Positions 35,848-56,575 of a stretch of DNA of 64,000 nucleotides are shown here, one piece after another; the first letter of the stretch is position 1, and each line of letters begins with the position of its first letter. The notes beneath the pieces were generated by a model. That model saw nothing but the letters and a program-made list of their open reading frames with translations. It was not told the DNA's origin and searched no databases. Origin of the DNA: Candidatus Saccharimonadales bacterium (GTDB taxonomy: Bacteria > Chloroflexota > Dormibacteria > Aeolococcales > Aeolococcaceae). Position numbers and translations under genes: made by a program. Where the stretch lies: positions 5,859 to 69,858 of the forward strand of contig DATLRB010000013.1 of NCBI GenBank assembly GCA_035534875.1, in the 5' to 3' direction.

Positions 35848-36918
35848 GTGGCTCGGGTGCTCGTCGCCGAAGATGATGGGCTGACACGCCGACTCATCGA
35901 CGAGACGCTCGCGTTCGCCGGACACGTTGTGACCAGCGCCTCCAACGGTGCCGAGGCGATCAGCGCCGTCGACACCCCGGGCTGCTTCGATGCGGTGATC
36001 ACCGACTATGCGATGCCGCACGCGAACGGCGTCGACCTCATCGCTCACGCGCAACGAGTGGATCCGATGATCTCTTGCATCGTCGTGACGGCCTTTCGTG
36101 ACCTCCACCTCGCGATGCAGGCGATGCAGGCCGGTGCGGTCGCGTTCATCCCCAAGCCCTTCAAATCGATGCACCTGCTCACCGTGCTCGACCGAGCACT
36201 CGAGCGCCGCGAGCTTGCCGACGAGGCGCTCCGTCTGCGCTTTCTCGCACCGATGCTCGAGCGCTTCACCATGGTGCTCGCCAACGCTCTGGAATCCAAG
36301 GACTGCGAAACGCAGGAGCACTCGAACCGCCTCGTCGGCATGTCCGATGCCATCGCCCGCCATCTCGGCATCGGTGATGGCATGCGCAGCATCATTCGGT
36401 TCGGCGCCTGCCTGCACGACATCGGGAAGGTGGCGATTCCGGAGACGCTGCTCCGCAAGCCGGAAGCGCTGACCCCCGAGGAGCGTACCGTCATTCGAAC
36501 GCACCCCGAGGTGGGCGCCGCGATTCTCGCCGACATCGACACGTGGGAAGACGTCCGCCTCATCGTCAAGCATCACCACGAGCACTTCAACGGGGGCGGG
36601 TACCCTGACGGGCTTCGCGGTGACCAGATCCCGCTCGGCGCCCGCATCGTGTCGATCGTCGACGCCTTTGATGTGATGCGCACCGGAAGGCCGTATCAGC
36701 CCGCTCGCTCCTACGACTGGATCCTTGGGGAGTTGCAGCGCCAGAGCGGCCTCCAGTTCGACCCGGAGTTGGTGGCTGCACTCACCACGGTCATGCCGAC
36801 CGCGGGCACGACCATCGAGGTGCCACCGCTCGACTTCCAGCCCGAGCACCGAGCGGCGGTCGGGCGGCGGCAGAACGACGCCGCCATCGCCGCCTGGCTG
36901 GGGAGGTCGCCTCGCTGA
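35848..36918 (+). CDS. response regulator with HD-GYP phosphodiesterase output (RpfG-like)
   Basis: Receiver domain: VLVAEDDG...ITDYAMPHANG...IPKPF. HD-GYP domain: HSNRL...LHDIGK...HHEHFNGGGYPDGL. Confidence 0.85.
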   Translation: MARVLVAEDDGLTRRLIDETLAFAGHVVTSASNGAEAISAVDTPGCFDAVITDYAMPHANGVDLIAHAQRVDPMISCIVVTAFRDLHLAMQAMQAGAVAFIPKPFKSMHLLTVLDRALERRELADEALRLRFLAPMLERFTMVLANALESKDCETQEHSNRLVGMSDAIARHLGIGDGMRSIIRFGACLHDIGKVAIPETLLRKPEALTPEERTVIRTHPEVGAAILADIDTWEDVRLIVKHHHEHFNGGGYPDGLRGDQIPLGARIVSIVDAFDVMRTGRPYQPARSYDWILGELQRQSGLQFDPELVAALTTVMPTAGTTIEVPPLDFQPEHRAAVGRRQNDAAIAAWLGRSPR

Positions 36919-39363: not shown

Positions 39364-41037
39364 GTGGCGGGCGGCGTAATGAGCAGCGTGGCGGCTGAGG
39401 CGATGCACCGTCGACGGAACGGTTTCCGCGAACGCTTGGATTCGCTGACTTCACCGAGCGGGCTCTTCATCGCGGCTGTGCTCGTCATCATGGCGCTGCC
39501 GGTGACGCGGACCATTCAAGATCCTGACTTCTGGTGGCATCTTCGCGCCGGCCAGCTGATCATCCAGCACGCCGGACTGCTGGGCAACGATCCGTTCACG
39601 TATACCGTCCCGACCCACCACTGGACGATGCACGAATGGCTCAACGAGGTGCTGTTCGCCGTCGAGTTCGCCGTCGGCGGCCTCGGGCTCATCGTGCTCG
39701 TGCTCAGCGCGGTGACCTGGCTCGGACTCCTGGCGGTCATGCAGAAGGCACGCCTCCGCAATCCAAGTCGCGGCATCCTCGGCCTCGGCATGCTCGTCGC
39801 GGTGGTCGCAGGGTTTCCGATCTGGGGACCGCGCGTCCAGATGATCACGTTCGCGTTCTCGGCGTTGACACTTTTCCTTGTCGAGCGCTACATGGTCCGG
39901 GGCGGGAAAGCCATGTGGTTGCTCGTTCCCGTGTTCGTGCTCTGGAGCAACCTGCATGGCGAGTTCGTCATCGGACTCGGGTTCATCGTCGTGATCCTTG
40001 TCGCGGAGCTCGTCGGTGAGCGACTGCAGATGCCTGATCCAGCCCCACGCTCACGCCTCCTCCCAATCCTGTACCTGCTGATCGCCTGCACCGCAGTGAG
40101 CATGATCAATCTCAACGGGCCAACCATCCTGTTTTACGCGGCTGGTACACAGGCATCGACGGCCCAGCAGTCGCTGATCGAGGAGTGGTTCTCGCCGAGC
40201 TTCCACGACTGGGAGGTGCTCGTCTACGGGGTGATGCTGCTCAGTCTCGCGATGCTGATCGTCTTCAACCAGCGAATCCGTGCGAGGGATGTTGCGCTCG
40301 TGCTGGTCACGACCGCGCTCTCGCTCCAGTCCGCGCGACACATCGAGCTCTTCGTCGCAGTGTCAACCCCGGTCTACATCGACCAGCTCGAGCTCGCGAC
40401 ACCGCGAATTCGCGCCGCCCTGCGCCGTCTTCGACGTGCGCCGGTGCCCGCGCGACCGCGCACTCGAGCGCAACCGCCGCTGCTCTTCCGTCTCACCGCA
40501 TGCGCGCTGCTGATGGCCGGTCTCGGCGGCGTCTACGTCGCCTGGCTCGTGCCCAAGATGCAACTCCAGCCGTATTCCCTCGCGTACGCGCAGGAATTCC
40601 CGGTGTGCGCCGCGCAATGGCTCGCCGGCGCACCCGAACCGTTGAAGATCTTCAACCAATACGGCGAGGGAGGCTACCTGGCCGAAGCGCTCTCTTCGCA
40701 CGGCGACAAGGTGTTCATCTTCGGCGACGCCGCGCTCATGGGCGATCAGATGCTCGAGACCTACGCCAACGTCGAGACGGTCACGCCGAGCTGGGACTCG
40801 ATCATTCGTCGCTTCGGCACCGACATCGTTCTCTACGACATCAAGACGCCCCTCGCCGACGTGATGGACCATGCGGCGGATTGGACCAAGGTGTACCAGG
40901 ATGGTCTGAGCGTCGCGTTCGTCCCGACCGACAGGCTTTCGACGTTGCAACTCCCGCCCGTGCCCCGCTGGGCGCCGGGGAGCGTGTGCGCCGAACAGTC
41001 GAAGGCTGGTCCGAATGCCGGAGCGCAGAACCAGTGA
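39364..41037 (+). CDS. polytopic membrane protein, possible GT-C-like glycosyltransferase (paralog A)
   Basis: At least 10 hydrophobic segments plus a C-terminal soluble domain. Motifs DPDFWWHLRAGQ, WSNLHGEF, SPSFHDW and YGEGGYL. The function is only a guess. An alternative ATG is at 39379. Confidence 0.6.
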   Translation: MAGGVMSSVAAEAMHRRRNGFRERLDSLTSPSGLFIAAVLVIMALPVTRTIQDPDFWWHLRAGQLIIQHAGLLGNDPFTYTVPTHHWTMHEWLNEVLFAVEFAVGGLGLIVLVLSAVTWLGLLAVMQKARLRNPSRGILGLGMLVAVVAGFPIWGPRVQMITFAFSALTLFLVERYMVRGGKAMWLLVPVFVLWSNLHGEFVIGLGFIVVILVAELVGERLQMPDPAPRSRLLPILYLLIACTAVSMINLNGPTILFYAAGTQASTAQQSLIEEWFSPSFHDWEVLVYGVMLLSLAMLIVFNQRIRARDVALVLVTTALSLQSARHIELFVAVSTPVYIDQLELATPRIRAALRRLRRAPVPARPRTRAQPPLLFRLTACALLMAGLGGVYVAWLVPKMQLQPYSLAYAQEFPVCAAQWLAGAPEPLKIFNQYGEGGYLAEALSSHGDKVFIFGDAALMGDQMLETYANVETVTPSWDSIIRRFGTDIVLYDIKTPLADVMDHAADWTKVYQDGLSVAFVPTDRLSTLQLPPVPRWAPGSVCAEQSKAGPNAGAQNQ

Positions 41038-42587
41038 CACGCCACGACCTTCTGGTGATCGCCAGCACCGAGCGGGATCGTCGAGCGACGGCGAGGCGGG
41101 CTGCGTGGATCGCCGCCGCCGCAATCGTCGTGCTGGTGCTCACCGTCCAGCCGTTCAGTGACTCCGACGTCTGGTGGCACCTCGCGCTGGGGCGGCTGAT
41201 CACCACCAGCGGGATCCCCGCCCACGAGCCCTTCAGCTTCCTCCCCGCCGCCCACGCATGGGTCGGCCAGCAGTGGCTGTATGAGGTGACGCTCGCCGGG
41301 CTGGTGGGCGCTGGAGGCGCGGGCCTCGCATCGCTGGTGATGGGCCTCGCGGCGGTGGCGGCCGTGGTGCTCGCCGCGCTCTCGATCCCACGATCCGCAC
41401 GCGTCACGGGCCCCTGGCTCGCTGTTTCCATGGTGATCACCGGGGTCGTGCTCAACAGTGTCGCCGGCGTCTCCAGTGCTGTGATCTCGGTGCTCGGGGT
41501 CGCGATCGTGCTCTTCGTGATCAGTCGATGGCGCGAGGGGCGGACCGCTGCCGTCTGGGGATTGCCTCCGCTCTTCGTGATCTGGGCCAACATGGATGCC
41601 GGGTTCGCGGCGGGCCTGGTGATCCTGCTCGCCGCGTTGCTGCTGATTCCCGCCGGCTCCGCGAAACACAGCGCCGGCCGACGTCAACTCGGCATCGCTC
41701 TCGTGGTCAGCGCGATTGCTGTGCTCGCCAACCCTGCCGGACCGGGCATCTACGCGTCGGTGCTCTCCGGAGTCGTCAATCCCGGCGTCGCCCAGAGCCT
41801 CGCCGGGTTCGGTTCCCCGAACTTCCACGACTGGTGGGCCCGCCTGTTCGAGGGCGAGGTGGTGCTCCTGATCGCGCTCTGGACCGTATCGGGCGGACCC
41901 GACCGATTCAGCGCGATCACCGGATTCGGGCTGCTCATCGCGACACTCTTCGCGCAGGAGAACCTGGGGATGTTTGCGGTCTTCATGGCGCCGCAGCTTG
42001 CCGCGCACGGGTCGCGGGCGTGGACGATGCATCTGGCACCCCGCACCGCGAGGGGTCGGCAGACGGGGGTGCGCCACCTTCATCCCGTGGCGACCAGCGC
42101 AGTCCTGATCGCGATGACCGCCGCGATGGCGGTAACCCTCGTCCCGAGGCTCAGTGCATCCGCGGCGGCCCTGTATCAGGCGACGACGTACCCCGAGGCG
42201 GCCGCGTCATATGCCGGTGCCACTTTTCCCGGACAGCGCATCTACACGATCGACTCCTGGGGCGGATACCTGGCCTACCGCTTCCCGTCCGGCCGCATCG
42301 TCTTCCTGTACGACGAGCCGGCGGTCTTCGGCAACGGCGCGCTCCAGTTGTATGACGACATCGATCAGCTCGATCCGAACTGGGTCCACGTGCTCGCCAT
42401 TGAGAGCCTCCATCACGCGATCCTGCCGTCGAACGCTCGCGAAGCTGCAGCCCTGCATGTCCTGGGGTGGACGGTCAATTGCTACGACCCGGCGAGCGGC
42501 AGCCTCGTCATGTCGTCGCCGCCGGCCGGCACGCCGCCGCCAACAAGCGGAATGGAGATCCCGCCGCCCGGGGTCCCGGACTGCTGA
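41034..42587 (+). CDS. polytopic membrane protein (paralog B of 39364-41037)
   Basis: The GTG at 41034 overlaps the upstream TGA (GTGA). Motifs DSDVWWHLALGR, WANMDAGF, SPNFHDW and SWGGYLAY are collinear with paralog A. The upstream part of ORF 40185..42587 was rejected. Confidence 0.6.
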   Translation: MTRHDLLVIASTERDRRATARRAAWIAAAAIVVLVLTVQPFSDSDVWWHLALGRLITTSGIPAHEPFSFLPAAHAWVGQQWLYEVTLAGLVGAGGAGLASLVMGLAAVAAVVLAALSIPRSARVTGPWLAVSMVITGVVLNSVAGVSSAVISVLGVAIVLFVISRWREGRTAAVWGLPPLFVIWANMDAGFAAGLVILLAALLLIPAGSAKHSAGRRQLGIALVVSAIAVLANPAGPGIYASVLSGVVNPGVAQSLAGFGSPNFHDWWARLFEGEVVLLIALWTVSGGPDRFSAITGFGLLIATLFAQENLGMFAVFMAPQLAAHGSRAWTMHLAPRTARGRQTGVRHLHPVATSAVLIAMTAAMAVTLVPRLSASAAALYQATTYPEAAASYAGATFPGQRIYTIDSWGGYLAYRFPSGRIVFLYDEPAVFGNGALQLYDDIDQLDPNWVHVLAIESLHHAILPSNAREAAALHVLGWTVNCYDPASGSLVMSSPPAGTPPPTSGMEIPPPGVPDC

Positions 42588-44108: not shown

Positions 44109-45494
44109 ATGGCTGAAGCCGTGAGCCGCGAGCTCACGCAATCCGCTCCCGCACGTCCGATGACGAACTCGGCAGACCGGCCGGCGGGTCGCCTGCCAAC
44201 CCGCAGGCCGCGCAGCGAGTCGACCGCGATGCCTGCCCGCGATCGCAGAGCGGGTATTGAACGAACGATCGAGCTGAGCCGATGGATGGTGCTCATCTTC
44301 GCCGCGGTTGCCAACAACTTCCCGGGGCTGGCGACCGGCCAGTCGACGGCGGCGGTCAACCTCGTGCTCGGCTCATGGGGCGTCTTCAACCTCGCGGCGA
44401 CGGTCATGCTGCTGGCGAATCGGATCCCCAGCCGCCGTCTCCAGGTGGCGACCATCGTGCTCGACCTCGCCGTCTCCAGTGGGCTCGTCTACCTGACGGG
44501 TGGGTACAACTCCGACCTGGCGGTCACGTTCTTCATTGTGGTCATCGCGAGCAGCCTTCGCTTCGGACTCGTCGGGAGCATGGCCTGCGCGTTCGTTGCC
44601 GGCGTCGCGTACTTCGCTGTCGGATTCAACGTTGCGAATCATCACCTCGACACCACGCTGATCGATGCGCTGGTGTCGCGACTCTTCCTCCTCTTCGTCG
44701 TCGCCCTGAGCAGCAACCTTCTCGCTCGGGAGCTCGTCGGCGAGCGCGATGCCCAGGTGCGCCGTTCCATCGAGCTCGAACACGCAGCGTTCGCGGAGTT
44801 GCGAGAGGTGGATCGAATCAAGAGCGAGTTCATGATGCTGGCCTCGCACGAGTTGCGGACACCCTTGACCAAGATCAAGGCGTGGCTCACGCTCATGCAC
44901 GACGCCGGCGATCGCCTGCCCCAGGATGCGCGTGACGAGGGCCTGCATGAGTTGCGTCTCGAAGCCGAGCACCTCGCTCGCCTGACCGACAACCTGCTGT
45001 GCATCGCCCAGCTCGAATCGGGGGAGATCCGCCTCAAGACCGCGGCCGTCGACCTCGAGAACGTGTTCCGTGAGGTCATTGCGCGGTTCGTGGAATCCGC
45101 CGATCACGACCGCTTTGCGATCACAGTCGCTCCGGATGCGCAACGAGTTCTCGCCGACCATGAGCGCCTTGCCCTGGTCATCGCGTGTCTCATCGACAAC
45201 GCGCTGAAGTTCTCCCCCGACTCGGAGCCGGTGCGCGTGACCACGTACCGAGCGGTGAACAAAGTGCACGTCGAGGTCAGGGACAACGGACGCCGGATCC
45301 CCGACAGCGACGTCGACCGTGTTTTCGCCTCGTTCTATCAGGTCGAGTCCCCGCTGCTCCGTCAGCGCGGTGGATTCGGCGTCGGCCTCTACCTCGCCCG
45401 GCAACTGGTCGAGCGTATGGGCGGCAGGATATGGATCGACAACTCTCGCGCGCGCGGCAACACATTTGTCGTCGCGCTTCCCGTGCACGTGTGA
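44109..45494 (+). CDS. membrane sensor histidine kinase (HisKA + HATPase_c)
   Basis: About 5 TM segments. H-box FMMLASHELRTPLT. N-box DNALKFS. G-boxes DNGRRI and GGFGVGLYLA. The start is uncertain. Confidence 0.85.
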   Translation: MAEAVSRELTQSAPARPMTNSADRPAGRLPTRRPRSESTAMPARDRRAGIERTIELSRWMVLIFAAVANNFPGLATGQSTAAVNLVLGSWGVFNLAATVMLLANRIPSRRLQVATIVLDLAVSSGLVYLTGGYNSDLAVTFFIVVIASSLRFGLVGSMACAFVAGVAYFAVGFNVANHHLDTTLIDALVSRLFLLFVVALSSNLLARELVGERDAQVRRSIELEHAAFAELREVDRIKSEFMMLASHELRTPLTKIKAWLTLMHDAGDRLPQDARDEGLHELRLEAEHLARLTDNLLCIAQLESGEIRLKTAAVDLENVFREVIARFVESADHDRFAITVAPDAQRVLADHERLALVIACLIDNALKFSPDSEPVRVTTYRAVNKVHVEVRDNGRRIPDSDVDRVFASFYQVESPLLRQRGGFGVGLYLARQLVERMGGRIWIDNSRARGNTFVVALPVHV

Positions 45495-45633: not shown

Positions 45634-46446
45634 ATGACAACTTTTACGGAGTCGATCCTCGCGCCTCTGGGTCACGGCGTCGTCCGTGCCCCGGCAGAGG
45701 CGACCGTGCTCGTCATCGACGATGACCCGGCGATGCGGGACATCCTCTCCACCGTCGCCCAGCAGCACGGCTTCGGCCTGCAGTTTGCCGAGGACGGCGC
45801 CGAGGGATTGCGCCTCGCGGAGCAGAGCGACGTCGACCTCATCCTGCTTGACCTCAGCCTGCCGGGCATGCCTGGACTGGACGTCTGCCGGCGGCTCCGG
45901 GGGGCGGGCGTCGAGGTCCCGATCATCATCCTGTCCGCCAGCACGGACACCGTCGATGTCGTCGTGGCGCTGGAGATCGGCGCTGACGACTACATCGCCA
46001 AACCGTTCGAGATTCGTGAGCTCGCCGCGCGTGTCAACGCCAAGCTGCGGCGCCAGCGGACCACCCAATCGCAGGTGCGCCCAGGACGCCTCAAGTTCCC
46101 CGGTCTCATCGTCGATATCGGCCGGCACGAGGTGCTCCGCGACGGCGAGTCGGTCAACCTCACTCCCACCGAATTCGACCTGCTCGCCCTTCTCTCCGCC
46201 TCGCCGGGACGCGTGATCTCGCGCTCCGAGATGATCCAGAAGGTCTGGGGTCAGGGCGCGGACCTCGACCTGCGCAGTGTTGACGCCCACGTGTACCGGC
46301 TCCGCCGCAAGATCGAGCCGACGGGCCCCAGGCCGACGTACATTCACGCCGTTCCCGGAATCGGCTATCGATTCGAGCGCCGCGGTCTCAACGAGCGCCT
46401 GTCGCGCAGCCTGACCGGGAGCGACGAGACCGGCCTAGCTAGCTGA
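45634..46446 (+). CDS. OmpR/PhoB-family response regulator
   Basis: Receiver domain VLVIDDD...LLDLSLPGMPG...AKPF. Winged helix LTPTEFDLLALL...VDAHVYRLRRKIE...GIGYRF. The ATG at 45634 is preceded by GAGGAAGGG. Confidence 0.9.
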   Translation: MTTFTESILAPLGHGVVRAPAEATVLVIDDDPAMRDILSTVAQQHGFGLQFAEDGAEGLRLAEQSDVDLILLDLSLPGMPGLDVCRRLRGAGVEVPIIILSASTDTVDVVVALEIGADDYIAKPFEIRELAARVNAKLRRQRTTQSQVRPGRLKFPGLIVDIGRHEVLRDGESVNLTPTEFDLLALLSASPGRVISRSEMIQKVWGQGADLDLRSVDAHVYRLRRKIEPTGPRPTYIHAVPGIGYRFERRGLNERLSRSLTGSDETGLAS

Positions 46447-46955: not shown

Positions 46956-47738
46956 GTGACCGTATCCATCGCATGCGTTTCCGGCAAGGGCGGCGTGGGC
47001 AAGACCACGACCGTCATCAACCTCGGCGCCGCGCTCGCCGAGCGAGGTAAGCGCGTGCTCCTCGTCGATTGCGACCCGCAGTCGAATCTGACCAGCGGCG
47101 TCGGGTTCGATCCCTACGACGTACGGTCGGGGGTCGCCGCAGTGATCGGCGGTCGCGTCGAGGCCGGTGCGGCGATCACCGAGACGAGCTGGCCGAACCT
47201 CTGGGTACTGCCCGCCTCCCCCGACCTGTCGGCTGTTGAGGGCGAGCTCGCATCGTCGATCGACAAGGAGCTCGCCCTTCGCGACGCGCTACGGCGGGAC
47301 GGAGCCCGAGCCACCTTCGACTACGTCTTGTTCGACACCCCGCCCAGCTTCGGCTTTCAGACCATCAGTGCGCTCGCCGCCGCCGGGGAGGTGCTGATCC
47401 CGGTGCAGATGTCCGGTTTCGCCATCCGCGGCCTCAAGGAGGTGCTGCGCACGGTGCACCTGGTGCGAGGGCGCCTCAACCCGGATCTTGCGATCCTCGG
47501 GATCGTGCCCACCTTCGTCAACCTGCGCACCCGCTTCAGCCGCCAACTCCTCGACGGTCTGTGCGAGCTGGCCAACATCCGCGTGTTCGCGACCGTCATC
47601 ACGCCGACGGTGAAGCTTCAGGAAACGTCGCTCGCCGGTATTCCGATCACCGCGTACGCGTCATCGTCCAAGGCCGCGGCGGCATATCGCGAGCTCGCCG
47701 GCGAGATCGTCGGCGACGGAGTTGCAGCCGTTGTCTGA
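46956..47738 (+). CDS. parA: ParA/Soj-family ATPase
   Basis: Deviant Walker [17 protein letters not shown], then [12 protein letters not shown] and FDTPPS. The GTG at 46956 gives a typical short N-terminus. The ORF opens at TTG 46914. Confidence 0.85.
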
Positions 47739-48408
47739 GGTCGGCGAGCGCTCCCCGCACACCGTCAACGGGCCGTCGCTCTCGGGTCCCATGGCGCGCT
47801 GGCTCGCGCCCACGTCCGAGTCCCGCGTCGAGCGGATAGCCATCGCCGCGGTGCATGACCGGCCGTGGTGGCCAGGGACCGACGTCGACGCCGCCACGCT
47901 CGCGGCGCTCCGTGCCAGCATCGCGTCGCGGGGGATCATCGAACCGCTGCTGCTCCGGCGCAGGGGCGCCGACCGGTTCGAGGTTGTCTGCGGATCGCGG
48001 CGCCTTCGTGCCGCCCGCGAGCTGGGTCAGACTCACGTCCCGGCGATCGTCCGCGAACTCTCCGAACGGGAGGCGCTGCTGGTAGCCGCCTGGACTACCG
48101 TCGAACGTCGCCAGCACACCGGTGATCGCACCGCGCTGAGCGAGCGCCTGCTGGCGGCCGGGTTCACCCAGGATGAAACCCGCGTCCTCTCGGATCAGCC
48201 GTCGCTCCAGCAGGCGCAACCCGCGGCGCGGGCGAACGCGCCCACGTTCGTGCTTCGCCCCGATCCCCTCTCGCGCCCTCGGCGATTCGCAGCCGATATC
48301 GCTTTCGAACTGCCCCGCGCCGAGGTGCTCCCTGCCATGGCGCCGGAGGCGCTGACCGCCGCGCTCACTGCTCTGGAGGGCGTGAGCCTGGTCGCCCTGG
48401 CGCGGTGA
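47722..48408 (+). CDS. ParB N-terminal (ParB/Srx) domain protein, atypical
   Basis: [21 protein letters not shown]...[17 protein letters not shown]...VPAIVREL. No clear HTH or dimerisation domain. An alternative ATG start is at 47791. Confidence 0.65.
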
Positions 48409-48926
48409 GCTCTGTTCCCCGTCACTCCGAGGAGGAGCTCCGCCAGCAATGGGCCTTTCTCGACGCCCTGGTCGACCGGCAGGCGGCCAGCTTGAGGTCC
48501 GGCGTCCAGGATCCCGAAGAGGATGATCTGACCGTTCCGATGGTCGCCACCGACACGGCCTACCTCCAGGAGATCTCCACCCTCACGCAGCGCGTCACCA
48601 CGCTCGAGGATGAACGGACGACGCTGCTCCGCCGGATCGACCTCGCAGAGCAGGCACGGATGGCGGCGGAGTCGGCGAGGGTGGCGGCCGAAGGCGCTCG
48701 CCAGGCCGCCGAGCGGACGCTGGCCGAGGAACGATCCCGCCTGCAGCGCGATGCCCGCCCGGCGGATGCCTTGTCACGACAGAGCGTCCCCTTGGCTCCA
48801 GGCGCGGCTCCGACACCCGTACACCACCCCGTCAGAGGCATCCCTGCTCGGAGCGCGACAGCCCCCCCGAAGGTGGCGGCGACGAAGCCGCGACGCAAGA
48901 GTTGGTGGCAGCGGATCAGGGAGTGA
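48405..48926 (+). CDS. coiled-coil hypothetical protein
   Basis: The GTG overlaps the upstream stop (GTGA). Heptad-like AEQARMAAESARVAAEGARQAAERTLAEERSRLQ. Basic C-terminus KPRRKSWWQRIRE. Confidence 0.45.
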   Translation: MSSVPRHSEEELRQQWAFLDALVDRQAASLRSGVQDPEEDDLTVPMVATDTAYLQEISTLTQRVTTLEDERTTLLRRIDLAEQARMAAESARVAAEGARQAAERTLAEERSRLQRDARPADALSRQSVPLAPGAAPTPVHHPVRGIPARSATAPPKVAATKPRRKSWWQRIRE

Positions 48927-49719
48927 CCGCGCCCGCCGGTTTCGGCCGTCTGCCCTGCGCCATCCCGACGAACTGACGCAGCGCCTCGGTCGGAGCCGGG
49001 CGCGTCGCGACCTCCCGGAGCAGCAACTTGCTCTCGGTGAGCAACTCCTGATCCGGGAGTTCGCCGCGGCCGGATGTGGCGACGACCCAGCCCGGGGAGT
49101 ACCAGAGCACCGTCTCGAACGCCAGCCCGCTCAGTGTCAGTCCGTTGAGCAGCGACTCGGTGATCCTCGAGAGCGGCCGTTTCGCATTCGTGACGACGAT
49201 CCCGCGGATCCGATCGAGCACATCGAGCTGCTGCGCGAGCCCCACGGTCAGCGCCGCCGCTCGCAACGAGAGAATGTCGAGCGCAGTGGGGATCACGATC
49301 CGGTCGGCGGCCCCCATCGGCCCGACCAGCGACGGTTCGTGTGGGTGCGTGTCCAGCAGGATGATGTCGCAGTCGTCACGAACATCCGCGAGCATCTCGT
49401 CGAGTTGCTCCTTCGAGGGCGACTCGTCATTGAGGCTTCGGTGTGACACGACGGTGCGGATACCGAGCGGATGATCGATCAGCGCATCTCGGAGGGTGAC
49501 ACGCCCGTGCAGGACATCGATGACGGTAACGCTGCGTTTGGCCCGCTCCAGAGCATTGCTCAATCCGCCGGTCGGATCGAGGTCGATTGCGATGACTTTG
49601 AGACCACCTGCGGCAGCTGCCGCGCACAGCGCATAGCTACTGGTTGTCTTCCCGACACCACCTTTTAGCGACGCAATCGTGATTACTTCTGCAGGCACGA
49701 CCGTAGAATATCCGCACAT
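48916..49719 (-). CDS. ParA/MinD/CpaE-like ATPase (second copy)
   Basis: [15 protein letters not shown]...IAIDLDPTGG...LLDTHP. The start is ATG 49719 or GTG 49698. Confidence 0.75.
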   Translation of the reverse strand: MCGYSTVVPAEVITIASLKGGVGKTTSSYALCAAAAAGGLKVIAIDLDPTGGLSNALERAKRSVTVIDVLHGRVTLRDALIDHPLGIRTVVSHRSLNDESPSKEQLDEMLADVRDDCDIILLDTHPHEPSLVGPMGAADRIVIPTALDILSLRAAALTVGLAQQLDVLDRIRGIVVTNAKRPLSRITESLLNGLTLSGLAFETVLWYSPGWVVATSGRGELPDQELLTESKLLLREVATRPAPTEALRQFVGMAQGRRPKPAGAVTP

Positions 49720-52342
49720 GGCCACCGCGGCGCCCCATGTCAAGCTACTGCGACAGCTTGCCAGCGCCAAAGACGATTATTTGAGTGGCGCGTTCGACAT
49801 TTCCTGGGACGGCGCTAAAGCGACGCTCTACCTCGTGTTCGGACGGCCGAGCCACGCTGTGTTCGAAACGGATCAAGCACAGATCGAAGGGGAAGCTGCG
49901 ATCGACGCGCTGCTCGCCGCGCTGCCACGGGTCTTCTCGGTCTCCGACTGGCGGCGCGCGATGTCGCCCCACGAAACCCTCTCGATCACCATCGACGAAC
50001 TCGCCGGCCCGTTCGTGCGCCTCGCAGGGTCGTACGCAGACGACCCGGTCACCGACGAGAGCCCCGAGTGGTGGAGCGCGGTCGACGACTCGCCGGATCT
50101 TCCCTTCGGGCTCGCAGACTTTCCACTGCTGCCTGGTGGACGTCCGCTCTGGATCGAGGCCTCGCCCGATGAGGTCCATCTTGCCGATCGCCTTGCCGAG
50201 CTGCCGCCCTCGATCCTGATGCTCACCGGCGCGAAGCTGCGTGCCGCGGCGGTCGTGAGCGGTGGCGACCTGATCGACGCCGTCTGGATCGATGCCGACG
50301 ATCACGCCCGCGGCGAGACCGCCGGGATGGCGATATTGGGCGCGACCAAGGGCTCACTGGCCGGCTACGCGCTCGATGATCCACGCGTCGCCGAGTCTCT
50401 GACCATGCTCTGGCGGCTCCCCGTGGCGGTGAGTGATGTCGAGCTGTCGTGGCTCGACCCTGCCTCGATGCTCGCCGCATTCCGAGCCGACGGCCTCGAC
50501 CGCGTGCTGGTCATCGACGCCCCCGTTCGCGGCATCGCGCTCTTCAGTCGCGGGGGGCTCGTGGCGGTCTATTCGGAGACACAGCGATCGGCGGTCGCCT
50601 CACCGGAGCGTCTACGCTCCCTGCTCTCGCAGGCGCGCGGACGGCTGACCGTGATGGAGCGTAAACCACGCCCGCTCGCGGCAGACACGACCCCGGCACC
50701 GGCGAGCGCACGTGACTTTTTCGAGGTCACGCCGCCTGATCCCGCACCCGTGGCATCGCCTGATGCCGAGCACGACGCTGCACCGGACGTCACTCCCGAC
50801 GCCGCGGCTGCTGACTCGCCTCCCGCGGTCGATGAGACGGGCGCTGAGGACGGCGAGACCGACGCCCCGCACACAGTGGGTGACACGGCGGACGACCTCG
50901 CACCCCCGCCGCCGCCCCCGCCGGACGAGCAGGCGGCGGCGGAAGCCGGTGACGTCCCGCCTGCTCTCGCTCCCGCTCCCGAAGCCGCCCGATCCGAGCC
51001 CAAACCCAAGCGGTCGCGCTGGGGATTCGGACGGTCTCGAAAGTCTCGTGCCGAACGTCGCGCGGCTGGGGATGCCGCTGCCAAAAGCACTGGCGAGTCC
51101 CCCGAGTCCGCAGGCTCCGAGGCGGCCACCTTTGCGGGGTGGAGCATCCGCCAGCCGAATGCCGGTACTCAGCCGGTGTGGTATCGCTCACAGGACCCGG
51201 CCGGCACGCCTCCGGCCGCTCCCGATCCTGATTCCGGGGAAGCCGATGGAGCTGCGCCGACGTGGTCGGTCGCGCATCCCGTGGATGACGCCCCGCCACC
51301 CGCCGATGCACCTGCTGCGGATGAGAGACCTTCCACGGACGACCCTCCGGTTGCTGATTCGGCGTTGGTTGCGTCCGATGCTCCGGTCGCGGCCGACGCC
51401 GCCGACGCTGCTCTGGCGGCGGAGACGCCTGATGCGGAAGCCGGCCCGGAGGTGGGAGCGGATGAAACGACGCCGCTGCTGCTGCTCCAGGTCCCCTCCG
51501 AATCGGCGCCGATCGACGAGCCGTCAGTGGAACCTGCGGAGGTCGGCGCTGCCGATCCTCTCGACCAGGGCCACCTGTTCGAGTTCGACTCGGAGGACGA
51601 GCCCGCGCCTGAAGCGGCGTCTGAATCGTGGCTTTCCTCGTCATGGCTTGACGACGTCGCGCATGGCGAAACCTCATCCGCCACGACCGAACAGGACATC
51701 ACCCCGGACGCTGACGCCTCGGAACACACCGACGCCGGACCAACCCCGGACGAGGAACCCAACGCGACCGCCGACCTCTGGGCGGAGGCGCCGGTCACCG
51801 ACCAGGATCATGGAGCCGAACCTTCGCCCCGAGACGAGCCCGTCGCCGACCACGGCGATCTCGATGCCGCCGGCGAGGAGGCGATCAGCCCCGGGCCGGT
51901 TCTGCGGACACCGGGCCCATGGAGCTGGCCGCTGGCCGAACCCGACGAGGAGCCTCGGGGCACCGCGGGTGCTGCCGCGGCATCGCACTCCTCCGATGAG
52001 CCCGACGCGCTCGAGCCGCAGACCGCGGACGGTGCGACGCCGGCGTCCGATGACGACGCGGACTCGGCTTTCTTCCATCGTGACGAGCCGGTCGGATCGC
52101 AATACGTGGACTTCGACGAGGTGCGCAACGAGCTGGTCCAGATCGGCATCGTGTGGCTCGGTGAGACGAACGCGGGACCGGTGACTGCGTTGCTCAGCAG
52201 TACCCGCTCGACGATCGACGATTTCGTCGCGACCATTGACACGATTCGCGGGCTTCACCTCGAGGGCCAGGATCCCGCGTCGATTCAGGCCATGGCGCGT
52301 GAGATGCACCAGCAGGCTGCGGAGCGGTTGTGCGGGGCGTGA
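49718..52342 (+). CDS. large acidic protein: structured N-terminal ~310 aa (DUF4388-like repeats?), ~465-aa disordered D/E/P/A region, ~90-aa C-terminal domain
   Basis: The frame is continuously open. The N-terminus LSGAFDISWDGAKATLYLVFGRPSHAVFET...IEGEAAIDALL resembles DUF4388-type modules (judged by eye). The middle region is low complexity. Confidence 0.6.
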   Translation: MATAAPHVKLLRQLASAKDDYLSGAFDISWDGAKATLYLVFGRPSHAVFETDQAQIEGEAAIDALLAALPRVFSVSDWRRAMSPHETLSITIDELAGPFVRLAGSYADDPVTDESPEWWSAVDDSPDLPFGLADFPLLPGGRPLWIEASPDEVHLADRLAELPPSILMLTGAKLRAAAVVSGGDLIDAVWIDADDHARGETAGMAILGATKGSLAGYALDDPRVAESLTMLWRLPVAVSDVELSWLDPASMLAAFRADGLDRVLVIDAPVRGIALFSRGGLVAVYSETQRSAVASPERLRSLLSQARGRLTVMERKPRPLAADTTPAPASARDFFEVTPPDPAPVASPDAEHDAAPDVTPDAAAADSPPAVDETGAEDGETDAPHTVGDTADDLAPPPPPPPDEQAAAEAGDVPPALAPAPEAARSEPKPKRSRWGFGRSRKSRAERRAAGDAAAKSTGESPESAGSEAATFAGWSIRQPNAGTQPVWYRSQDPAGTPPAAPDPDSGEADGAAPTWSVAHPVDDAPPPADAPAADERPSTDDPPVADSALVASDAPVAADAADAALAAETPDAEAGPEVGADETTPLLLLQVPSESAPIDEPSVEPAEVGAADPLDQGHLFEFDSEDEPAPEAASESWLSSSWLDDVAHGETSSATTEQDITPDADASEHTDAGPTPDEEPNATADLWAEAPVTDQDHGAEPSPRDEPVADHGDLDAAGEEAISPGPVLRTPGPWSWPLAEPDEEPRGTAGAAAASHSSDEPDALEPQTADGATPASDDDADSAFFHRDEPVGSQYVDFDEVRNELVQIGIVWLGETNAGPVTALLSSTRSTIDDFVATIDTIRGLHLEGQDPASIQAMAREMHQQAAERLCGA

Positions 52343-52346
52343 CCCG

Positions 52347-52784
52347 GTGACCACCCAGGTGGCGAGCTGGATCCAGGATCATTCGGTGCTGATCCTGGCC
52401 GGCCTTGCCGTGGTCGAGGGCATCATCTGTCTCGCGCTGCTCCGGGCGGCAAGACATTCGCGCAACGAGATGAAAGCGGCCCAGGCGGCGGCACTCGAGT
52501 CCGCACGAGCAGCTGCTCTGGCAGCTCCGGGTGCGATCGACCCCGAGGCGGTCCTCGCCCTGTTGCGCCAGGGCCATGCCCCCACCCTCGACAACGTGTA
52601 CGCGATGATGCGTCGGCGAGAGCTCGAGGGGGCGGACCGCAACGATGATGACGCGCCCGCCTCCCGCAGAGCGCGATCGCGTTCCGGGGTGGCGACGAGC
52701 ATTCCGACCAGGGACGCACCGCCGGACCGCACCTCGCTCACGACCTCTCAGGTGGAAGAGCGGCTGCGCCCGTACGAACGCTGA
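52347..52784 (+). CDS. small single-pass membrane protein
   Basis: The GTG lies 4 nt after the upstream stop. TM segment HSVLILAGLAVVEGIICLALL followed by an Ala-rich helix. Confidence 0.4.
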   Translation: MTTQVASWIQDHSVLILAGLAVVEGIICLALLRAARHSRNEMKAAQAAALESARAAALAAPGAIDPEAVLALLRQGHAPTLDNVYAMMRRRELEGADRNDDDAPASRRARSRSGVATSIPTRDAPPDRTSLTTSQVEERLRPYER

Positions 52785-52791
52785 GCTGTCG

Positions 52792-53304
52792 CTACCGCGG
52801 GTGGCTCCGCCGCTCGAGCGACGCTGGACGTCCCCTGCCGCACGCCTCGGCCGCAGCGAGGAATGCCATCGCGACCGCCTCCTCGCGCAGCCGAGCGATC
52901 GCGTCCTCCGTCCGGTGCAGCACGGTCACGCTGTTGCGGATGGTCCATCCGGATCGACCGGAAACCTTCGGAGGGAGCAGTTGCTCGCCCGGCGAGCGGA
53001 CCGACCAGCTCCCTGGGGAGGCACTTGCCGATTTCGTGGCCGAGTAGAGCGACCCGGGGCGCCTGGCTCCGTCGAGGGTGCCTGGCCGCTGGACTTCCAC
53101 GAAGACCGGGGCGCTCTGCGGCATCGATATGGGCCAGACCACCTCCACCGGCGGGATGACATTCCTCTCGGTCGGCATCGCGCCGGCGAGCGCGAAGAGC
53201 GCTGCGGCGAGATCTTCACCGGAATCGAAGGCGCTGCCCTCGCCGAACCACTCGTCGTCCTGAGTCGAGGAACCCTCCGCCGTCGCCAGCGCCCCTGTGC
53301 TCAT
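52792..53304 (-). CDS. hypothetical protein (acidic N-terminus)
   Basis: GC3-rich frame from the ATG at 53304. No domain recognised. Confidence 0.35.
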   Translation of the reverse strand: MSTGALATAEGSSTQDDEWFGEGSAFDSGEDLAAALFALAGAMPTERNVIPPVEVVWPISMPQSAPVFVEVQRPGTLDGARRPGSLYSATKSASASPGSWSVRSPGEQLLPPKVSGRSGWTIRNSVTVLHRTEDAIARLREEAVAMAFLAAAEACGRGRPASLERRSHPR

Positions 53305-53470
53305 CACAACGAGGTGATCGTACCGGGACGAGTTAACGAGTCGTGGATGTCTGGAACGCTGCAGGAATCGAACGTGTATCGAACCGGTTGCTCCCGTCAG
53401 CGCGTGGCGCCGCTGCGCACACAATCGGCGCGGAACCGCCCTCCGTCCGAAATCCAAGGAGCATCCTCAC

Positions 53471-54640
53471 GTGAGCATGGCAGCCGTCCCGCAGAAGCTC
53501 GACAGCCGGTATCTCGAGGCTCTGGGCCCCCTGCGTCCACTGGTCGACGACGACAGCCTGACCGAGATCATGGTCAACGGACCGGAGATGGTCTACGTGG
53601 AACGCAAGGGAAAGATCCTCCTGACCGACATCCGGTTCGACGACGAGGCTCACCTGATGCGTGTGATCGACACCATCGGTGCCGCCGTAGGACGACGCAT
53701 CGACTCGCGCACACCCCTGATGGACGCGCGCTTGCTCGACGGATCCCGCGTCAACGCGGCGATACCGCCGGTGGCGCTCGATGGTCCCATTCTGACGATT
53801 CGAAAGTTCAGCAAGGACCCGTATCAGGTGTCCGACCTCATCGGGTTCGGAACGATGACCCAGGAAGCTGCCGCGTTCATCCAGGCGTGCGTGCTCGCGC
53901 GCGCGAACATCCTCGTGTCCGGCGGTACCGGTACGGGAAAGACGACGCTCCTCAACGTGTGCTCCGGCTTCATTCCGATCGACGAACGCATCGTCACCAT
54001 CGAGGATGCCGCCGAGCTGCAGTTGCACCAGGAGCATGTCTGCCGTCTGGAGGCACGTCCCGCCGACGTAAACGGCGAGGGCCGCATCGCGATCCGCGAG
54101 CTGGTCATCAACTCGCTGCGCATGCGACCCGATCGCATCGTCGTCGGAGAGTGCCGCGGTGGCGAAGCCCTCGACATGCTCCAGGCGATGAACACGGGCC
54201 ACGACGGCTCGCTGACCACCATCCATGCGAACAGCCCGCGCGAAACCCTCTCCAGGCTCGAGACGCTGGTGCTCATGGCCGGTCTGGACCTGCCCCTCAA
54301 GGCAATCCGTCAACAGATCGCGGGCGCGATCAACCTGATCATCCAGCTGAACCGCCTCAAGGACGGCTCGCGCAAGGTCGTGTCCGTCACCGAGGTCATC
54401 GGGATGGAAGGTGAGATGATCACCGTGCAGGAGATCTTCAAGTTCGAGTCGCGCGGTGCAGATCCGTCGACCGGAAAGATCATCGGCGACTTCGAGCCGA
54501 CGGGCATCAGGCCGCGGATCATCGACAGGCTGTTCGACATGGGCATCCCGCTCCCGCCGCGACTTGCGCAGATCTTCCCGGACCGCCGCCAGGTGGGCGT
54601 CGTGACCGAGAAGAACGGTCACCTCAGCGGTGTCGCGTAA
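53471..54640 (+). CDS. CpaF/TadA/VirB11-family secretion ATPase (short form)
   Basis: Walker A VSGGTGTGKTTLLN. Asp box IVTIEDAAELQL. Walker B RPDRIVVGECRG. His box GHDGSLTTIHAN. AAGGAG lies 9 nt upstream of the GTG. Confidence 0.88.
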   Translation: MSMAAVPQKLDSRYLEALGPLRPLVDDDSLTEIMVNGPEMVYVERKGKILLTDIRFDDEAHLMRVIDTIGAAVGRRIDSRTPLMDARLLDGSRVNAAIPPVALDGPILTIRKFSKDPYQVSDLIGFGTMTQEAAAFIQACVLARANILVSGGTGTGKTTLLNVCSGFIPIDERIVTIEDAAELQLHQEHVCRLEARPADVNGEGRIAIRELVINSLRMRPDRIVVGECRGGEALDMLQAMNTGHDGSLTTIHANSPRETLSRLETLVLMAGLDLPLKAIRQQIAGAINLIIQLNRLKDGSRKVVSVTEVIGMEGEMITVQEIFKFESRGADPSTGKIIGDFEPTGIRPRIIDRLFDMGIPLPPRLAQIFPDRRQVGVVTEKNGHLSGVA

Positions 54641-54692
54641 CAGCTCGCGCTAACGATCGCCGACTGAGTGATCCCGTCGGCACACGCCGGCG

Positions 54693-54962
54693 TCAGCCAG
54701 GCGGCGGCGGTACGTTCGCCGGCTCGTAGATCAGGCCCTCGCCGCAGCAGCGGCCACACTCATCGCCTGGGGTCGCCTTCGACGCCCAGGCACCGACGGT
54801 GCCCTGCCGAAACTCCACTCTGCGATTGCGGTCGCCGGACCCGTCGCAATTCGGGCACCGGGCAAGGCGCCGTTCCGCCGCTGGCATGACCATACCCTGC
54901 GCTCCCGGCGGGAAATCGGCTGTACGGCGGCGGACCCAGGGATTCGCGGTGCCGCCCGACAT
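54693..54962 (-). CDS. small DnaJ-type zinc-finger protein (two CxxCxGxG repeats)
   Basis: 89 aa, starting 12 nt after the CpaF stop. Contains CPNCDGSG and CGRCCGEG. Confidence 0.5.
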   Translation of the reverse strand: MSGGTANPWVRRRTADFPPGAQGMVMPAAERRLARCPNCDGSGDRNRRVEFRQGTVGAWASKATPGDECGRCCGEGLIYEPANVPPPPG

Positions 54963-54973
54963 TCGAGCCCGGA

Positions 54974-56575
54974 TCAGGCGGATCCGACCCCGTCCATGAC
55001 GTGAATGGGCTGGAACACGTCCTCGGAGAGCTGCTCGCCTGAGGTGGTCAGATGGTCGAGGAACGTGGGCATGACACCGGTCGGCATGTACGAGCCGACA
55101 ACCTTGCCGTCCTCGTCGACACCAACCTGCTTGTAGGTGAAGATGTCCTGCAGCTTCACCTCGTTGTTGACGCAACCGAGCACCTCGGTGATGCTCACGA
55201 CCTTGCGCGTCCCGTCTCGCAGGCGGGACTGCTGGACGATGACGTTCACCGCCGAGCCGATCTGCTCGCGGATCGCACGCGACGGGAGTTCGGCGCCCGC
55301 CATCAGCACCAGCGTCTCGAGACGGCTGATGCAGTCGTGCGCGTTGTTCGCATGGAGGGTCGTCAGCGATCCGTCATGGCCGGTGTTCATCGCCTGGAGC
55401 ATGTCCAGTGCTTCGCCGCCGCGACACTCTCCGACGACGATGCGATCCGGCCGCATGCGCAAGGAGTTGATGACCAGGTCGCGAATCGACACGCGACCCC
55501 GACCTTCAACGTTCGCGGGGCGCGTCTCGAGCGTCACGACATGATCCTGACGAAGCTGGAGTTCGGCCGCGTCCTCGATGGTGACGATACGCTCGTCCTC
55601 GGGGATGAAGCTGCTGAGGATGTTCAGGGTGGTCGTCTTTCCCGAGCCGGTGCCGCCACTCACCACGACGTTCATCTTTCCCCGGACACACGCCCGGAGG
55701 AATCGCACCATGTCCTCTGTAATGGACCCGTACTTGATCAGGTCCTCGATCGTCAGCGCCTCCTTGGCGAACTTTCGGATCGTCATGGTGGGTCCGCGCA
55801 GCGCCAGCGGCGGAATGATCACGTTCACGCGGGATCCGTCCTTGAGGCGCGCATCAACCATCGGCGACGACTCGTCGACTCGGCGACCGATACTGCTGAC
55901 GATCCTGTCGATGACCTGCATCAACTGCTGATCGCTCTCGAAGGTGACCGGGCTCAGCGTCAACTTGCCATGCTGCTCGACATAGATCTGCTTGTAGCTG
56001 TTGATCATGATTTCGGTGATGTCCTCGCTCGCGAGGAGTTCCTCGAGCGGTCCGAGGCCGAGGACATCGTTGATGAGGATCTCGACAAGCCGCAGTCGAT
56101 CAGGCCGGCTCATCGTGATGTTCTGCTCGGTGATCACATCGTTGAGCAGTTCGGCGATGCGCTGGCGCACGACCTCCGGCGGGACGGAGTCGGTGCCCTG
56201 GGCGAGCTCCTCGACGAGGCGCTGATGCACCTTGCCACGCAGCGCCACGTGCGTGTTGACGTGGCCGCCCATCTTGTTCAGCCCTGGGCGCGACATCCCG
56301 CCGGTGCGGTTCAGGAGCGTGGGAGCGCGCTGCGGCTCAGGAGCGGGTGTGGGGCGCTCAACCTCGAAGGGTCGTGGCGCGGGAGCCGGCGTAGCCTGCA
56401 CCGGCGCCGACGCTCCCCCAGGGCGATTCTGCCAGCCGGCCGGAGAAAACCGGTCCGCTCCGTCATCTGCGGGACGATCCGGCGTTCCTGAGGGTGCGGA
56501 TGGCGACGGCGCGCTGGGGGCGGAAGTCGAAGGAGTTCCCTCTGCTTTCCGCTGCACTCGGTCGAGCAACGACAT
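54974..56575 (-). CDS. cpaF: CpaF/TadA-family pilus-assembly-type ATPase (long form)
   Basis: MSLLDRV... followed by a P/A/S-rich linker and a helical bundle. Then VSGGTGSGKTTTLN, IVTIEDAAELQL, RPDRIVVGECRG and GHDGSLTTLHAN. GAGGTGG lies upstream of the ATG at 56575. Confidence 0.9.
   Translation of the reverse strand: MSLLDRVQRKAEGTPSTSAPSAPSPSAPSGTPDRPADDGADRFSPAGWQNRPGGASAPVQATPAPAPRPFEVERPTPAPEPQRAPTLLNRTGGMSRPGLNKMGGHVNTHVALRGKVHQRLVEELAQGTDSVPPEVVRQRIAELLNDVITEQNITMSRPDRLRLVEILINDVLGLGPLEELLASEDITEIMINSYKQIYVEQHGKLTLSPVTFESDQQLMQVIDRIVSSIGRRVDESSPMVDARLKDGSRVNVIIPPLALRGPTMTIRKFAKEALTIEDLIKYGSITEDMVRFLRACVRGKMNVVVSGGTGSGKTTTLNILSSFIPEDERIVTIEDAAELQLRQDHVVTLETRPANVEGRGRVSIRDLVINSLRMRPDRIVVGECRGGEALDMLQAMNTGHDGSLTTLHANNAHDCISRLETLVLMAGAELPSRAIREQIGSAVNVIVQQSRLRDGTRKVVSITEVLGCVNNEVKLQDIFTYKQVGVDEDGKVVGSYMPTGVMPTFLDHLTTSGEQLSEDVFQPIHVMDGVGSA

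Follow-up and report, generated by a model that had tools for sequence, protein, structure and literature searches.

The 64,000-nucleotide stretch of contig DATLRB010000013.1 described here, called the window below, is a core chromosomal stretch of Candidatus Dormibacterota with a GC content of about 67%, in which ribosomal protein genes, secY and rpoB/rpoC are also encoded. It contains a gene cluster (Table 1) with two ATPases of the CpaF family, CpaF1 and CpaF2. Five of its genes form an invariant core: a stand-alone ParA/MinD-family ATPase (ParA-like), a short protein (small), a single-pass membrane protein (TM), a protein named g7, and CpaF1; the gene of CpaF2 is nearly always close. CpaF1, the most conserved protein of the cluster, lacks the three-helix bundle reported for the minimal CpaF architecture. 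The cluster is most likely a module of cytoplasmic and inner-membrane-associated proteins around CpaF-type motor ATPases, restricted to the phylum and inherited vertically. Tentatively, and with somewhat less than even confidence, we propose that it is the positioning and regulation module of a dispersed Tad-type motor; the pilus link, the positioning role and the physical interactions of the proteins are what we infer from the observations given below.

A preliminary description of the cluster, made from the DNA letters alone, did not recognise the arrangement as a described system. In agreement with this, no description of the cluster turned up in the literature and libraries that were searched. 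A three-helix bundle and a polytopic platform are considered necessary for type IV filament motors. In this cluster, by contrast, a CpaF without the bundle is under housekeeping-level constraint phylum-wide, always with the same four partners, a MinD-like ATPase among them. This protein, together with a triad of protein kinds that recurs at a second locus, would surprise a specialist. Five uncharacterised protein families gain a testable context, and a first molecular handle is obtained on the surface and cell-organisation biology of Dormibacterota, an abundant uncultured soil phylum for which the mechanism given below is a proposal.

Conservation of the cluster and its five-gene core

Homologues of the N-terminal domain of the large acidic protein of the cluster (big) were found only in metagenome-assembled genomes (MAGs) of Candidatus Dormibacterota, a few of which are filed under other names. 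The cluster-bearing contigs L011, L015, L048, L051, L059 and L063 (L numbers designate the related loci) come from bins labelled Gaiellaceae, Acidiferrales, Saccharimonadales, Actinomycetes or Binatia, and these names probably reflect mis-binning or mislabelled MAGs. Four contigs carry big orthologues at 48-54% identity. In L001, L004 and L006 the gene order is identical, including the flanks (sensor kinase, OmpR regulator, cluster, CAP-domain protein, MacB-type ABC transporter); the fourth, L005, has the core only. A survey with one genome per species gave 64 loci, two complete chromosomes among them (OY970307.1 and OY970355.1). In essentially all long-enough loci of the 64, tblastn gave the order histidine kinase, response regulator, small, ParA, ParB-like, coiled-coil protein (cc), ParA-like, big, TM, g7, CpaF1 and, at some distance, CpaF2. 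The preliminary description had proposed synteny in related genomes as a check. Because the gene order recurs in essentially all long-enough loci of the 64 species-representative genomes, chance adjacency of the cluster genes is excluded.

However, not all genes are equally constant. The trio of ParA, ParB N-domain and cc genes is missing in L005, L008, L013, L025, L116 and L117; cc orthologues were identified in L001, L004 and L006, and tblastn detects them in about 55 loci. The contigs of the most divergent ParA-like members (45-56% identical), L116 and L117, also lack big, and they keep small, ParA-like, TM, g7, CpaF1 and CpaF2. Inserts of 2-5 kb separate cpaF1 from cpaF2 in many genomes (examples are a receiver-EAL gene plus a kinase gene, and a sigma-factor gene plus one for an unknown protein), and CpaF2 is not within 10 kb in L005. 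The five genes small, ParA-like, TM, g7 and CpaF1 remain together in every indel seen, and they are defined as the core because they survive the loss of the trio, the loss of big and the inserts between the cpaF genes. Where the trio is missing (L005, L116), small is found directly downstream of the ParA-like gene. Judged by this layout, ParA-like and small may have formed a two-gene operon into which the trio was inserted.

These data bear on the module of positioning and secretion-type ATPases that had been suggested earlier to act on a scaffold or cargo protein, with the ParA/ParB-N/cc genes as one of its parts. The pairing of the two kinds of ATPase is conserved, and ParA-like and CpaF1 are always found together. 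The trio turned out to be dispensable, and the big protein does not hold a central place.

It is important to compare CpaF1 and CpaF2 with the structurally characterized CpaF of Caulobacter. The Walker A, Asp box, Walker B and His box motifs are intact in both proteins. Residues 45-515 of CpaF2 align with residues 21-485 of Caulobacter CpaF, the three-helix bundle included. The layout of CpaF2, with a Pro/Ala-rich disordered N-terminus, three-helix bundle, N-terminal domain (NTD) and ATPase domain, is that of a canonical full-length protein. In CpaF1, residues 17-358 align with residues 147-488 of Caulobacter CpaF (9e24) and only 16 residues stand before them. No upstream start codon is possible, the stop-to-stop open reading frame (ORF) starting at 53318. 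Because the alignment begins at residue 147, 16 residues precede it and no start codon lies upstream, CpaF1 consists of the NTD and ATPase domain only, without the intrinsically disordered region and the three-helix bundle. According to a structural and phylogenetic study of 2025, the minimal architecture of CpaF comprises the three-helix bundle, NTD and ATPase domain; deletion of the bundle abolished expression, and the bundle has been modelled in contact with a TadB/C-type platform (PMC12019362). CpaF2 conforms to this minimal architecture, whereas CpaF1 does not. The missing bundle is the most unusual feature of the cluster, and it had escaped the preliminary description.

Across the orthologous tblastn hits of the 64 loci, CpaF1 is 79-100% identical, compared with 60-97% for CpaF2. 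Between the window and L117 the identity is 87.6% for CpaF1 and 85.7% for a fragment of RpoC. CpaF1 has its closest paralog in CpaF2 and vice versa (58-61% identical), and in nearly all genomes their genes lie within a few kb. Their matches to VirB11 (1e-33) are far weaker than those to CpaF (3e-114 and 4e-128, respectively). The convergent orientation of the twin genes, noted earlier, is confirmed. The pair forms a long inverted repeat, 53905-54402 against 55176-55673, with 77% complementarity over 378 nt and 72% over 101 nt, at which gene conversion or inversion could take place.

The ParA-like ATPase has 260 residues, with KGGVGKT at residue 12, DLD at 39 and IILLDT at 112 (deviant Walker A, Walker A' and Walker B). 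Its best NCBIfam models are MinD and ParA, all under cut-off, and no curated subfamily cut-off is reached. The best PDB matches are MinD, FleN and Soj, and VirC1 is matched weakly. The family is confined to Dormibacterota, with identities from 95% down to 45%. A C-terminal amphipathic motif, ALRQF[IV]xMAQGRR, is conserved and has a hydrophobic moment of 0.56-0.64. In L117 (10001-10780), the lineage that is also without big, the Walker A motif is degenerate, with KSAVGKT in place of KGGVGKT.

The small protein is conserved in all lineages, and the core of its AlphaFold2 (AF2) model has a pLDDT of about 90. A fold search gave weak SH3/Tudor-like and ribosomal bL19-like matches (E 0.07-0.3, TM-score 0.3-0.4); these matches name the class of fold and not the function. 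By its gene position and by analogy with arginine-tailed ParA partners, small is likely a partner of the ParA-like ATPase. The TM protein, with orthologues in all lineages, has a short N-terminus, one transmembrane helix and a conserved helical segment, AARAAALAAPGGIDPE..PTLDNVY, which would be cytoplasmic by the positive-inside rule. This segment was considered as the missing bundle of CpaF1 supplied in trans. The idea was rejected at the sequence level, since hhalign against the bundle region of CpaF2 gave a probability of 0.1%. The g7 protein also has orthologues in all lineages (33-84% identity), with an acidic N-terminal motif, DDEWFGEGSAFDSGEDLAAAL, and a C-terminal motif, GRSGWSIRNSV..L..TE....LREEA.

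The large acidic protein and a second locus

The big protein of the window has a pI of 4.1. Its disordered linker, residues 336-788 (453 residues), contains 22% D+E, 15% P and 21% A. In alignments A1 and A2 the family consists of an N-domain of about 335 residues with an invariant PLLP, a linker of about 50 to 450 residues and an 85-residue four-helix C-domain. The usual length of the family is 430-550 residues, and the size of the window member is due to a lineage-specific expansion of the linker. The giant size given in the preliminary description thus does not hold for the family as a whole, which in addition is missing in two deep lineages. The AF2 model of a 430-residue homologue (pLDDT 87.5) has three beta-rich subdomains and the four-helix C-domain. 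A profile search against PDB sequences gave nothing below E 0.2.

A weak match to the DUF4388/PATAN domain (PF14332) was found in 22 of 48 family members, the best at 6e-5, and falls in the first beta-rich subdomain. For the reference member the score is 14.9 bits, where the cut-off is 25, and the window protein has no match at 0.01. PilB1, a pilus ATPase, and PilC, a platform protein, are binding partners of PATAN domains in Synechocystis, and PATAN domains co-occur with GspE-type domains (bioRxiv 10.1101/2021.06.11.447907). The cluster resembles the PatA-type PATAN regulators of Synechocystis in that a PATAN-like subdomain is genetically tied, at two independent loci, to an ATPase of the PilB/CpaF superfamily. 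However, the match is sub-threshold, the big protein has no receiver domain, and its three beta-rich subdomains, acidic linker and helical C-domain are different. The putative partner here is CpaF or TadA instead of PilB.

An exhaustive profile search gave 315 representatives of the big family, of which the distant members proved to be paralogs encoded by the same set of Dormibacterota genomes. Their loci were scanned with alignment A4, since alignment A3, made from the distant relatives, was too diverse. At this second locus (L081-L115; for example L094 8001-16960 and L090 3729-17044) one or more big paralogs lie beside a VirD4-like protein and an operon for a TadA/TrbB/VirB11-like ATPase, two proteins with four transmembrane (4-TM) segments and a MinD-like protein of 524-570 residues. 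In a subset, a type IV secretion system (T4SS) pilin, TrbL (TrbL_4), a single-stranded DNA-binding protein (SSB) and a sortase are also present. The big paralog, long MinD-like protein, TadA/VirB11-like ATPase and two 4-TM proteins occur together in 21-25 of 35 second loci. The ATPase is 30-37% identical to CpaF1 and CpaF2. It has platform-like membrane partners, whereas the ATPases of the studied cluster have none.

A triad made of a ParA/MinD-like ATPase, a PATAN-like protein with the PLLP motif and an ATPase of the secretion superfamily is thus present twice per genome. The two loci share this triad and differ in the 4-TM proteins, the long MinD-like protein and the VirD4-like protein of the second. 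At the level of gene content, the recurrence of the triad is the best evidence that its three protein kinds may work jointly. It would extend the link between PATAN and PilB to the CpaF/TadA/VirB11 branch. The second locus has the look of a conjugative or T4SS-like element that carries a Tad-like module. We take it to resemble the actinobacterial Ssd (CpaE-like)-TadA-TadB-TadC "helicase/secretion neighbourhood".

Relation to Tad pili and other known systems

T2SSF (PF00482), Flp, TadE, prepilin peptidase, CpaB, secretin, VirB4, VirD4, relaxase and integrase were not found among the window proteins scanned, and the same set was not found in precomputed Pfam annotations within +/-10 kb of six related loci (L001, L004-L006, L116, L117). 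Six-frame scans gave no TadE/Flp or prepilin-peptidase motif, and tblastn with a Dormibacterota VirD4-like protein gave no match in the window. The earlier statement that pilus and conjugation parts are lacking is correct for the window but not for the genomes. Elsewhere in Dormibacterota there are TadE genes (Pfam 30-40 bits, cut-off 22.9) and TadG-like genes (up to 22.9 bits, cut-off 22.3). TadG-based scans gave only stand-alone TadE-TadE-TadG modules and, in the stretches scanned, no tad locus. In the chromosome OY970355.1 (L064 15211-18466, identical to L071) TadE and a 659-residue TadG-like gene are located exactly between cpaF1 and cpaF2, and a second TadE/TadG copy, 77% identical, is found 1 Mb away (L077). 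Because TadE and TadG exist, in this chromosome between the cpaF genes, the cluster may hold displaced tad genes, an alternative already named in the preliminary description. Beside the TadG-like gene of L077 (1752-4242), a signal-peptidase-I-like ORF (SGSMxP) and two ORFs with TasA/camelysin-like N-termini can be read from the sequence.

The cluster is similar to Tad/Flp (type IVc) systems in having two CpaF-family ATPases with intact motifs, CpaF2 with the complete domain layout, a ParA/MinD-family ATPase alongside, and TadE/TadG in the same genomes. It is unlike them in that the studied locus is without TadB/C, Flp, TadV, CpaB/RcpC and secretin; conversely, Tad loci as described have no counterpart for the five extra conserved proteins of the cluster.

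If a Tad-type filament is served, CpaF2 would be its motor, and the genes for its pilin, pseudopilins and platform would be dispersed over other parts of the genome. CpaF1 could be a bundle-less paralog that works with or regulates this motor and is held at the membrane by TM and g7. ParA-like and small may place or license assembly in space, which is the role of TadZ/CpaE, the MinD-like ATPase that localises Tad machines in classical systems (PMC11407121). In most lineages the PATAN-like scaffold with its acidic linker might bridge the positioning ATPase and the motor ATPase. The Soj/ParB-N/coiled-coil trio would add a nucleoid-based cue, and the kinase, the OmpR regulator and the nearby c-di-GMP enzymes might control the module. 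This would represent a new way to position and regulate a motor, in which a PATAN-like scaffold and a stand-alone ParA/MinD (A/D) ATPase replace TadZ and regulation falls to a subunit that is itself a paralog of the motor.

Several points weigh against this proposal. The TadB/TadC platform, Flp and prepilin peptidase (TadV) were found in no stretch scanned, whole genomes not being covered. The pilus link rests on the TadE/TadG genes and one relocation event, and nothing relevant on pili or Tad in Dormibacterota was found in the literature searched. The ParA-like protein, with its P-loop at residue 12, has no receiver-like N-terminal domain of the TadZ/CpaE type and falls under all TadZ/Ssd model cut-offs; the CpaE_hom_Actino model gives 21.5 bits against a cut-off of 154. 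The PATAN match is below the Pfam gathering score. A PDB fold search with the big protein gave only sliding-clamp matches, which were rejected as meaningless repeat-pattern hits (TM-score 0.11, rmsd about 20 Å). Without the bundle, CpaF1, the product of the most conserved gene, is less likely to be a standard motor. Finally, order conservation is weaker evidence than it seems, because synteny across the phylum extends over all of the roughly 25 kb between rpoC and the ABC transporter.

This last point would be expected if there were no functional unit at all, only a slowly rearranging core region beside the rpoBC and ribosomal operons, in which ParA/ParB serve partition, the CpaF proteins are displaced TadA and the rest is unrelated. 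The flanks (two polytopic proteins, a TPR protein, the kinase and regulator, the CAP-domain protein, ABC/FtsX and rpoC) are indeed equally syntenic, and three sub-blocks of the cluster are independently lost or interrupted. However, overlapping or near-abutting frames link the genes (parA and the ParB-like gene overlap by 17 nt, the ParB-like gene and cc by a 4-nt start/stop), as does the 19-nt divergent promoter gap. The five core genes stay together through all indels seen, and the triad recurs independently at the second locus. We consider a grouping without a common function quite unlikely.

The features of CpaF1 might also be explained by a platform-independent membrane ATPase complex of CpaF1, TM, g7, the MinD-like ATPase and small, which makes no pili and acts in a Dormibacterota-specific envelope, division or export process, with CpaF2 a mere neighbour. 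CpaF1 is conserved like the RpoC fragment, is the only part never split from TM, g7 and ParA-like, and is without the element modelled to contact TadB/C. No lineage has a polytopic platform gene within +/-10 kb, and CpaF2 is often displaced by inserts, in L005 beyond 10 kb. However, the close kinship and proximity of the two CpaF proteins speak against this, one genome has TadE and TadG inserted between cpaF1 and cpaF2, the known biology of PATAN and TadZ points to pili, and nothing positive was found for any alternative substrate. Such a complex seems to us rather unlikely. Its more general form, in which CpaF1 is the engine of an unrecognised membrane ATPase machine without a TadB/C-type platform and the triad is an organising principle used twice, is to be judged unlikely. 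If no pilus is served, the cluster would be a new use of the secretion-ATPase fold.

The trio deserves comparison with ParABS (Soj-Spo0J). Its ParA has the motifs KGGVGKTT and DCDPQSN. In the ParB-like protein (228 residues), GSRRLRAA is aligned to the GERRYRAA box of Spo0J (1vz0), the arginine box of the CTPase domain. The similarity stops at the first helix of the helix-turn-helix (HTH), at about residue 153, and TIGR00180 is matched only over 4-104 of 186. The HTH recognition helix and dimerisation domain are undetectable in the comparison with Spo0J. The cc protein has 40 conserved N-terminal residues and a basic C-terminus with W. No parS was found within 3 mismatches across 64 kb. A centromere-like DNA element was likewise sought and rejected: there is neither parS nor a repeat array, and the sole long inverted repeat is the cpaF paralog pair. 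The trio shares with ParABS the Soj-like ParA, the overlapping downstream ParB N-domain gene and the arginine-rich box. However, it differs in the recognition helix, dimerisation domain and parS just mentioned, in its coiled-coil third gene and in its absence from several lineages.

It could be supposed that the cluster is a device for DNA segregation or transfer, in which ParA and the ParB-like protein mark DNA and the TadA/VirB11-type ATPases move it, as a domesticated conjugation or uptake system comparable to VirC1 with VirB11. The best NCBIfam model of both CpaF proteins is "TadA family conjugal transfer-associated ATPase", below cut-off; the ParA-like protein weakly matches VirC1, a known ParA-like partner of a T4SS; and the paralogous locus is conjugation-like, with VirD4-like, TrbL_4, T4SS pilin and SSB genes. 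However, VirB4, VirD4, relaxase and integrase were not found at the studied cluster, and the match to CpaF (1e-114 to 1e-128) is far above that to VirB11. The trio is the dispensable part, its ParB-like protein has no recognition helix, neither parS nor a repeat array is present, and the position in the core chromosome is fixed. A DNA device is the least probable of the explanations, and very unlikely.

Some likeness to the McdA-McdB, PomXYZ and ParC-ParP systems was also noted. Here too the gene of a stand-alone A/D ATPase, whose Walker A is deviant, stands back-to-back with that of a largely disordered, low-complexity protein, and a small basic-tailed protein is encoded next to the ATPase. 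However, there is no sequence kinship to McdB, PomX/Y or ParP, the big protein is dispensable in two lineages, and the candidate cargo is an ATPase, not a compartment or array. Because the defining features that were tested are absent, the cluster is not a Tad system as defined, nor a ParABS, TadZ or conjugative T4SS system.

Gene inventory and surroundings

Genes of the window were called by GC3-guided calling and translation. Domains were assigned by Pfam and NCBIfam profile scans of the window proteins, and PADLOC was used for defence models. The ten genes and named domains of the preliminary description are borne out; Pfam and NCBIfam confirm each domain and nothing more. An eleventh conserved gene, small, had been missed.

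Table 1. Features of the cluster and its adjoining two-component genes (window coordinates)
Feature	Position	Strand	Remarks
Histidine kinase, polytopic N-terminal sensor	44109..45494	+	Pfam HisKA, HATPase_c; syntenic neighbour
OmpR-type response regulator, kinase partner	45634..46446	+	Response_reg and Trans_reg_C
small, about 123 aa	46435..46806	-	SH3-like beta-barrel (predicted), Arg-rich C-terminal tail; core
ParA (Soj-type)	46956..47738	+	AAA_31 2e-48, CbiA; trio gene 1
ParB N-domain protein (ParB-like)	47722..48408	+	ParB_N 2e-18; trio gene 2
cc, coiled-coil protein	48405..48926	+	Trio gene 3; no family match
ParA-like, stand-alone ParA/MinD-family ATPase	48916..49698	-	AAA_31 3e-21, KGGVGKT; core
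Divergent start-codon gap, 19 nt	49699..49717	.	Holds conserved GTAGAATAT
big, 874 aa	49718..52342	+	N-domain, acidic linker, helical C-domain; frequent, not universal
TM, single-pass membrane protein	52347..52784	+	No family match; core
g7, about 170 aa	52792..53304	-	No family match; core
CpaF1	53471..54640	+	T2SSE 2e-61; Caulobacter CpaF 3e-114; core
Zn, 64-aa zinc ribbon	54693..54887	-	Downstream of cpaF2; clade-specific accessory
CpaF2	54974..56575	-	T2SSE 4e-65; Caulobacter CpaF 4e-128; convergent with cpaF1

Between the start codons of the divergently read genes ParA-like and big there are 19-20 nt in the window and its relatives (at 9981-10000 in L001-L066). The element GTAGAATAT in this gap is kept in the 11 loci inspected, and probably represents shared or overlapping -10 elements of two leaderless genes. 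A scan for promoter and terminator consensus sequences gave no match. The GC dips reported earlier at the module boundaries are real but modest (0.59-0.64, compared with about 0.68-0.72), and they coincide with intergenic or divergent-promoter regions.

The CxxCxGxG zinc-finger gene after CpaF, also reported earlier, is a real gene, with substitutions by codon position of 187:251:580. It is confined to the clade of the window, where it is present in about 20 close relatives, and is missing in L001, L004 and L116. Its motifs are CPNCDGSG and CGRCCGEG, and the match to DnaJ_CXXCXGXG is weak (0.0016).

The histidine kinase is found upstream in nearly all related loci, and the response regulator is 74-99% identical across loci. 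The kinase matches 6TM_PilS weakly (21.7 bits, cut-off 27) and is a candidate regulator of the cluster. Signalling genes are unusually frequent here. Just after rpoC (window 35848-36918) come the genes of a receiver-HD-GYP protein, of a HAD hydrolase, of a HisKA_3 kinase and of a single-domain receiver. A receiver-EAL gene and a HisKA_3 kinase gene lie between the cpaF genes in one subclade (L004 14009-16497, L006 13953-16240). The HD-GYP and EAL proteins are the c-di-GMP enzymes referred to above.

A defence system was considered and rejected, PADLOC giving only generic P-loop matches, the best 8e-8 to PDC-M28B over 39 residues. A mobile element was rejected as well: neither big nor its paralog matches a plasmid, there is no integrase, and the place beside rpoBC is fixed. 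Further upstream in the window, two adjacent polytopic membrane proteins of 516-557 residues (39364-41037 and 41037-42587) have no Pfam, NCBIfam or PDB match. They carry an N-terminal loop motif of the DPDFWWHLR type, and the pair is syntenic with the cluster in all lineages inspected.

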